A stretch of 64,000 nt of DNA from Escherichia coli (lineage in GTDB: Bacteria; Pseudomonadota; Gammaproteobacteria; Enterobacterales; Enterobacteriaceae): NCBI RefSeq assembly GCF_016026235.1, contig NZ_CP065613.1; one strand, written 5' to 3'. The number at the start of each line of letters is the position of its first letter. Within the stretch, counting starts at the first letter, position 1. Positions 41-1,452 of the stretch are shown here, piece by piece. Both the position numbers and the translations under genes were made by a program. Below the pieces are notes generated by a model that saw only the letters and a list, made by a program, of their open reading frames with translations, was not told the origin of the DNA and ran no database searches.

Positions 41-1452
41 ATGGCAGTAAAGATTTCAGGTGTACTGAAAGATGGGGCGGGTAAACCTGTCGTAAATTGT
101 GCGATTGAACTGCGGGCCAGAAGAACCAGTCCGACCGTTGTGGCACACGTTGTTGCCACTTGCGTGACGGACAATAACGGTGCTTATGTGATTGAGGCTG
201 AGCCGGGGTATTACGAGGTTGCGCTTCACTGTAACGGCTGGCAGCCAACCCGTGTCGGGATATTGATGTGGCACCGACTGATGCACCGGGGACACTGAAC
301 GCGTTTCTGAATGCACCAAAGGATGGTGATTTACGTCCGGAGGTGATGAAGCGCTTTGAGGAAATGGTGGCGCAGGCGCAGCAGAGTGCCGGGGCTGCAG
401 CCGGAAACGCACAGCAGACGGCGCAGAATGTGGCGGCAGCCGCAACGGCCCGTGATGATGCACAACGTTTTGCGGAGAATGCCAGACAGGATGCAGTTGC
501 CACTGCAGAGGACAGAAAGGCCACTGCGGAAGACGTGAAAAGCACGGGGAAAAACGCCGTCTTATCCGGTCAGCGTGCACAGGCAGCCGCAGGTTATGCC
601 CGCGCAGCAGAACAGGCCAAAAATGACATTGATGCTGCGCTGACCGGCACTCTGAAAACGGCTAACCATCTGTCTGAAATCGCAGCAGCAGGCGAAAAGG
701 CACAACAGAAGTCCCGGGATAATCTGGGGCTGAAAAGTGCGGCCACGATGGAAGCACAGAGCGACATTTACGATCGGACAAAAGGCCGTCTGGCGATACC
801 CGGCGCATTCGGCTTTGGGTGTGCTTTTCTGCCTGAAGATGTTATCCGTTTTGACACTAAGAGTGATTTCCTGGCCTGGGTAAGGAATGCGCTGCCAGGT
901 GAGTATTCCGTTGCTGGCCGCCTGGGCATCATACCCGACACACGGTTTGAAGGGGTGCTCAGCATCCGGTGGACTGATGCACGCCCTGAGACAACAGAAC
1001 CGCGGTACAGAGCCAAATCCCTTACTTTTTACGGCATTAACGGCCCCATTTATCACACCCGCTACTGCTACTGGCCCATATCCAGACTGACTGACTGGGT
1101 GAAAATAAATATAACCACAGAAGATATTATTTACAGAATCGTGGCGAGCTCTGTCTGCAACAGATGGGGAGACCCTGACATTGGCGGGCTGATTATTGCT
1201 GCGTACCAGGGAGAAGCTGACGGTGATAAAGTCATCAGACTTGTCAGGGGGCAGTCATACAGAGGCTCACGACTGGGACCGGTGGGGATTTCAGTGCCCA
1301 GTACTCCCACCGGAACGCATATAGCATACCCACAATTTTTCATTACGGGATGTTCAGAGCATTCATTACCGGGGTCATATTGCGCCCTGTCCGGGGTGCC
1401 GGATGCACATGTCTCTGGCGCAATGCCCGGGCTTTTTATTCGCACATCGTGA
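41..1452 (+). pseudogene. stf: Lambda-like side tail fibre gene, interrupted by a frameshift near 257-268
   Basis: ATG at 41 encodes MAVKISGVLKDG..., the N-terminus I recall for lambda Stf; that frame stops at 298 and the protein continues in another frame from 268 (PGTLNAFL.. like lambda PGTLNDFL), through 1452. Confidence 0.7.

Follow-up and report, generated by a model that had tools for sequence, protein, structure and literature searches.

A one-base loss, probably a genuine mutation, in the side-tail-fibre gene beside ipaHa at the end of a lambda-family prophage in Escherichia coli

The side-tail-fibre gene (stf) at positions 41-1452 of the 64,000-nucleotide stretch of Escherichia coli DNA analysed here (the window; features are on the plus strand unless stated otherwise) is the intact 470-codon gene of enteroinvasive-type E. 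coli minus one G. The loss is probably a real mutation that has made stf a pseudogene. The finding is of a known kind, either ordinary prophage decay or a one-base assembly error at the ipaH cargo end of a prophage. It adds a further instance, in an enteroinvasive-type E. coli lineage, of a phage gene that has decayed next to a chromosomal ipaH.

As sequenced, stf is a pseudogene of 1412 nt, against 1413 nt and 470 aa for the intact form. The first reading frame (frame A, 41-298) begins at ATG 41 or GTG 35, encodes MAVKISGVLKDG...TRVG and then 12 out-of-frame residues, ILMWHRLMHRGH, and closes at the TGA of 296-298, yielding a product of 85 aa of which 73 are native. The remainder of the protein, from D74 onward, continues in frame B (259-1452), which is the -1 frame relative to the first and is open from 202; its first possible start is GTG 268, which defines a second ORF of 394 aa at 268-1452. 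A preliminary description of this DNA had placed a frameshift near the 5′ end of the gene, within gggatattgatgtgg (257-270) and with a stop at 298, and had proposed alignment to intact stf genes as the check. That alignment bears the description out and narrows it to a single base. Over 131 columns the window is 100% identical to two intact homologues save one absent G (GTC-GGGATATT vs GTCGGGGATATT), and the missing base belongs to the run at 257-259, which is GGGG in each comparable copy and GGG only in the window. When the G is re-inserted, a 1413-nt ORF of 470 codons is recovered with no further lesion. A megablast search with window 1-2100 against 5,426 complete E. coli genomes gave eight full-length matches (97.8-99.5% identity), each with a matched span that exceeds the query span by one base. 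All eight contain an uninterrupted CDS of 1413 or 1416 nt (470/471 codons), annotated as "prophage tail fiber N-terminal domain-containing protein". Among intact genes, the CDS WP_151334812.1 (E. coli O121) is 99.5% identical to window stf. The homologues are thus single ORFs, and the window copy differs by a non-triplet indel and a premature stop, as in a frameshift pseudogene. A chance arrangement of ORFs was also considered and was ruled out by the uninterrupted 470/471-codon CDS in eight of eight full-length matches and by the division of one protein domain, PF08400, between the two ORFs.

On sequence grounds, the gene at 41-1452 is assigned to the lambda-type side-tail-fibre genes. The restored protein matches PF08400 (prophage tail fibre N-terminal domain, phage_tail_N) at residues 1-131 (E=2e-48) as well as several PHROG tail-fibre families, and over its first 121 aa it shares 50% identity with lambda orf-401, which is the N-terminal part of Stf. 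The 40 nt 5′ of stf, which include a hairpin and the ribosome-binding region, align with the lambda lom-stf spacer, such that the spacer, ribosome-binding region and start codon of lambda 19610-19650 are all conserved in the window. The hairpin, at 4-25, is terminator-like (8 pairs, 6 of them G-C, then TTTTT). The domain match, the identity to orf-401 and the lambda-like spacer together substantiate the lambda-Stf-like N-terminus that had been proposed. Relatives have these genes in the order L-K-I-J-lom-stf-DUF4376, with a convergent ipaH next; the position typical of the Stf family, after J and lom, is therefore seen in the J-lom-stf order of these relatives and in the spacer of the window. 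Two other family features are absent. The reading frame is interrupted, at codon 74, and the place 3′ of stf is held by DUF4376 (PF14301) instead of Tfa (Caudo_TAP, PF02413). Window stf is a pseudogene of the Stf family and no working member of it.

The frame break follows Gly73 and cuts PF08400 into profile positions 1-75, the only part present in the frame-A product, and 82-131, found at residues 6-55 of the 394-aa ORF. In the cryo-EM structure of Ur-lambda, Stf residues 1-94 form the tail-docking domain (PMC12617516); taken with the split of PF08400 at 75/82, this means that the domain that docks on the tail is cut. The 85-aa product has neither the end of the docking domain nor the shaft and receptor-binding part, and the 394-codon ORF has no docking domain and retains the shaft and C-terminal domain. 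Because the break lies inside the N-terminal tail-docking domain, neither fragment should work, and a loss of function is predicted. Under the mechanism that we propose, no side fibre would be assembled from an 85-aa product plus 394 codons with neither docking domain nor evident promoter. It is highly improbable that stf persists as two working polypeptides, or that the C-terminal ORF from GTG 268 has a function of its own. That ORF does have GGGA 7 nt upstream of its GTG and retains the shaft and C-terminal domain in full, with an intact DUF4376 gene 3′ of it. Set against this are the docking domain severed mid-way (PF08400; PMC12617516), the analogous stf split in lambda, which abolishes side fibres (PMC12617516), the absence of a promoter-like site in window 1-2300 and the absence of such a product from the records reached by exact protein look-ups. 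We recommend that 41-1452 be annotated as one frameshifted pseudogene rather than as two genes. The neighbouring effector gene ipaHa is unaffected by the lesion, since it is intact, on the opposite strand and beyond a terminator.

Two overlapping frames in a tail-gene region also recall the programmed -1 frameshift of lambda G/GT, an established example from lambda-type tail operons. The G/GT site has a conserved slippery heptamer, and its overlap is conserved across phages. The frames of window stf overlap at 202-298, and a -1 shift anywhere in this interval would yield a near-native protein. Unlike G/GT, however, the window has neither a slippery site nor conservation. Programmed -1 ribosomal frameshifting or transcriptional slippage that joins both ORFs into a full-length fibre is thus a reading to which we give almost no credence. 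No slippery heptamer of the form X_XXY_YYZ occurs in 195-300, and three G are far below the length needed for RNA-polymerase slippage. The RNA of 262-340 folds no better than shuffled sequence (MFE -21.7 kcal/mol, z=-0.79 vs shuffles), and the two-frame arrangement is not conserved, with 23 of 23 comparable copies in frame at the site. The preliminary description had held that evidence for programmed frameshifting would count against a lesion; heptamer, stimulatory RNA structure and conservation were all examined and none speaks for it. The lack of conservation in particular effectively refutes this reading. Phase variation at a homopolymer was also rejected as an explanation, since such a locus needs a tract of about 7 or more that varies among strains, and the tract has 3 G in the window and 4 G in every other copy. 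When the whole window was scanned against Rfam, the matches were limited to the Moco riboswitch and small repeat-type sRNA families, none lying close to stf.

It is harder to separate a real mutation from an error in the sequence. The preliminary description had allowed for a sequencing artefact and this caveat stands, since the allele is unique to the window and falls in a homopolymer inside a multi-copy repeat. Under such a reading the missing G would be a homopolymer miscall or the product of poor polishing in a multi-copy repeat, and stf would be intact in the organism. We consider this unlikely, yet far from negligible. The GGG allele is seen in the window only and is absent from 23 other comparable lambda-type copies (19 in the survey described below and four further full-length matches), which have GGGG or an intact 470/471-codon CDS; it was likewise found in none of the fetched loci compared. 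It is the sole lesion in the gene, it lies within a G-run and its repair gives a perfect ORF. The stf-DUF4376-ipaH module is multi-copy (about five per genome, and four in each of two genomes), so that reads can be mis-assigned, and consensus and polishing errors cluster at homopolymers in multi-copy repeats. Furthermore, stf is intact at the same locus in E. coli FDAARGOS_943, the closest relative, to which the core of the window is 99.93-99.98% identical. On the other hand, 3-4 G make a short run for a systematic homopolymer error, the rest of the 64 kb has no frameshift in otherwise intact genes relative to this 99.95% identical genome, and most sister copies have a genuinely inactivated stf.

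The assembly itself appears clean: over 64 kb the window differs from FDAARGOS_943 by only three single-base indels, namely the stf G, a G in fiu at 37267 and an intergenic A6/A5 difference at 49916; in otherwise intact genes the number of such indels is zero. Selection acting on real mutations fits this pattern better than random error does. Window stf also has two private substitutions, at 1318 and 1328, and combines, as a mosaic, alleles that occur in paralogous copies (427A, 774T, 1156T), with a converted patch at 903-926. Because of these private substitutions and mosaic alleles, the window copy of stf has a history separate from that of the others, which was counted in favour of a real mutation, as was the frequency of stf decay in the module, where 22 of 35 copies are broken. 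With these points taken together, we favour the one-G loss as a genuine mutation, with reasonable though by no means complete confidence. GGGG would have become GGG most likely via replication slippage, translation from ATG 41 would leave the native frame after Gly73 and halt at TGA 296-298, and the host would have retained the effector while adjacent phage genes decayed, as is usual for effector-carrying prophage ends. That the deletion is in the organism rather than in the assembly alone, and that it originated by slippage, is what we infer from this evidence.

Database look-ups speak, weakly, against a real mutation. A 36-nt exact pattern of the missing-G allele had no match in GTDB species-representative genomes and none in JGI metagenome contigs. 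Products of 85, 87, 99, 394, 369, 368 and 362 aa had no exact match, and those of 85, 87 and 99 aa are absent from 15 billion proteins, although about 23-31 contigs labelled E. coli carry the same core-gene alleles as the window lineage. All these look-ups are weak evidence, as pseudogenes at NCBI have no protein records and short-read assemblies break inside the repeat.

The wider setting of the module shows how common such decay is. Genomes of Shigella and enteroinvasive-type E. coli contain several copies of a unit made up of stf, DUF4376, orf59 and ipaH. We surveyed 35 copies, the window included, which are not independent, as related strains contribute many of them from a shared locus; among them stf has an open reading frame in 13, is frameshifted in 13 and has lost its 5′ part to IS insertion or deletion in 9. 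It is hence broken in 22 of the 35, by at least six distinct lesions, and ipaH is usually kept. The commonest lesion is loss of one unit from a tandem ACTG repeat (three units at 1086-1097 inside stf), which is intact in the window and which, through the loss of 4 nt in other copies, is the second frameshift site of the family. It is present at the att-lambda/bio locus in S. flexneri-type genomes. Alignment places a deletion of the bases equivalent to window 1091-1094 in copies L015-L017, L021, L022 and L024, and the same loss is deduced from matching ORF length and an equivalent stop in L013, L014, L019 and L033, some of them at other loci. Either slippage recurs at this site as a hot spot, or a single lesion has been spread among paralogous copies by gene conversion. 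Among the further lesions, L040 has gained one base net, L042 has lost one base close to the 3′ end, and IS elements have inserted in at least three positions. Given this variety, decay of stf beside a retained ipaH is the norm, in agreement with the report that ipaH copies often have prophages and pseudogenes around them (PMC9046306). The stf pseudogenes of Shigella and enteroinvasive E. coli thus belong to the same module as the window, sometimes at the same att-lambda/bio locus, with stf broken and ipaH kept; their lesions, however, differ, and the one-G loss at codon 74 is found in the window only. We think it very doubtful that the recurrent inactivation of stf beside ipaH has been selected rather than neutral, for example by fixing the effector module or avoiding fibre expression. 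If it were, the G loss in the window would be one more convergent event and the ACTG repeat a mutational hot spot serving the same end.

Two observations on the structure of the module can be added. In L042 (8160-10001 of GCA_900448095.1) the one-base loss near the stf 3′ end fuses stf and DUF4376 into an annotated product of 613 aa. The 3′ two-thirds of stf travel together with DUF4376, orf59 and ipaH as a unit (window 582-2100 compared with L005-L009, L039 and L042), and this unit has two 5′ contexts, one of lambda-type J-lom and the other a myovirus-type cluster of baseplate, Gp34_trimer and Caudo_TAP genes.

Laboratory lambda provides the closest parallel to the break itself. A lambda with its stf frameshifted is fully viable. 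Lambda Stf has about 774 aa, compared with 470 aa in the intact form of the window gene. In lambda PaPa, as opposed to Ur-lambda, a frameshift in stf leaves two ORFs, orf-401 and orf-314, at the same gene position as in the window, after J and lom, and stops side fibres from being made and assembled (PMC12617516); both ORFs are annotated in the lambda record NC_001416. The site of the break is different, at codon 74 in the docking domain in the window and after about 400 codons, in the shaft, in lambda. In addition, the C-terminal part of window stf (phrog_2636) is unrelated to that of lambda, and the gene 3′ of it is DUF4376 as against the Caudo_TAP-type tfa of lambda.

The viability of laboratory lambda also bears on what the break says about the prophage as a whole. 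The preliminary description had taken the broken stf as a sign of a defective prophage, which does not follow, since side fibres are dispensable in lambda; a broken stf alone is no basis for calling a lambdoid prophage defective. It had further considered the element a cargo-bearing remnant. The cargo is confirmed by ipaHa (2206-3969) and an att core, but "remnant" is overstated, as the FDAARGOS_943 prophage at att-lambda is nearly full length, running from the recombination and immunity region through the head and tail genes, with stf intact. Because the window begins at stf, the rest of its own prophage cannot be judged from it. The FDAARGOS_943 prophage is probably defective for reasons other than stf, with two of its three IS insertions (IS66, ISEc60 and IS600) inside the late operon.

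The FDAARGOS_943 prophage (L025, NZ_CP065615.1 1986001-2036000) deserves a brief description. IS66 is at the 5′ end of its L gene, ISEc60 is between the tail and head-tail joining genes, and IS600 is in ninB. The prophage also encodes tRNA-Thr, tRNA-Asn, rexA and a RelE/ParE-family toxin gene with an adjacent HTH-domain gene.

At its start, the window contains the right end of a lambda-family prophage that occupies the lambda attachment site and carries ipaHa as cargo. The exact lambda att core (GCTTTTTTATACTAA) at 4447-4461, the attR junction, has one match where zero are expected by chance. It is flanked by P-arm-like sequence on the left and by E. coli attB' and ybhB on the right, after which come ybhB, bioA, bioB, bioF, bioC, bioD and uvrB; a 15-bp att core beside ybhB and bioA marks integration of a lambda-family element at attB-lambda. 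Between stf and attR lie the DUF4376 gene and ipaHa. The DUF4376 gene (1403-2026), in the position of a tail-fibre assembly gene, is annotated as 207 aa from ATG 1403 and matches PF14301 (E=1e-16), phrog_1141 and PHROG "tail fiber protein" families. A strong terminator-like hairpin at 2142-2163 (9 pairs, 7 of them G-C, then a T-run) closes the stf-DUF4376 unit and faces the convergent ipaH. The intact cargo gene ipaHa (2206-3969, minus strand; class 4, ipaH0722) encodes a 587-aa type III secretion effector E3 ubiquitin ligase with the Pfam domains LRR_TTSS and NEL, and the exact protein is found in 342 blocks of the collection; the ipaHa class and the 587-aa length are those given in PMC9046306. 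No MxiE box was found upstream of ipaH with up to 2 mismatches to GTATCGTTTTTTTANAG, a consensus that may be wrong.

Placement of effector genes after tail-fibre genes and next to the att site is the usual layout, as in the prophage-end effectors of EHEC Sakai and the Gifsy prophages of Salmonella (PMC3530523), and in the window ipaHa lies between stf-DUF4376 and attR. The kind of cargo differs, however. In the window it is an IpaH-family E3 ligase used by the plasmid-encoded Shigella-type secretion system and not a LEE-dependent effector.

Two details of this region concern annotation and origin. The annotated starts of DUF4376 differ between records, giving 207, 205 or 187 aa, and in its 207-aa form the gene shares 50 nt with the end of stf; GTG 1463, which has GAGGAA before it, looks to be the more plausible start. 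Mapping from the FDAARGOS_943 annotation places short remnants of two genes, one of them a transposase gene, at 4061-4237 between ipaHa and the attR P-arm. These remnants suggest that the ipaH cargo was brought in or rearranged by an IS.

Elsewhere in the window, the catecholate siderophore receptor gene fiu (36778-40461) is split by a 1,425-bp IS4-family element at 38731-40155. The element encodes a 448-aa transposase (PF13006, PF01609) and has the inverted ends TAATGCC.../...GGCATTA; a target duplication of 12 bp, CCCACGCCGGGG, lies on either side of it. The one-G deletion at 37267 is a second difference from FDAARGOS_943, in which fiu is intact. Two lesions in one gene are typical of Shigella/EIEC-style gene decay. 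Lastly, ybiR contains an in-frame GCG insertion at 52844-52846 that adds one Ala relative to FDAARGOS_943; the allele, which about 23 contigs labelled E. coli share, is useful for marking the window lineage.
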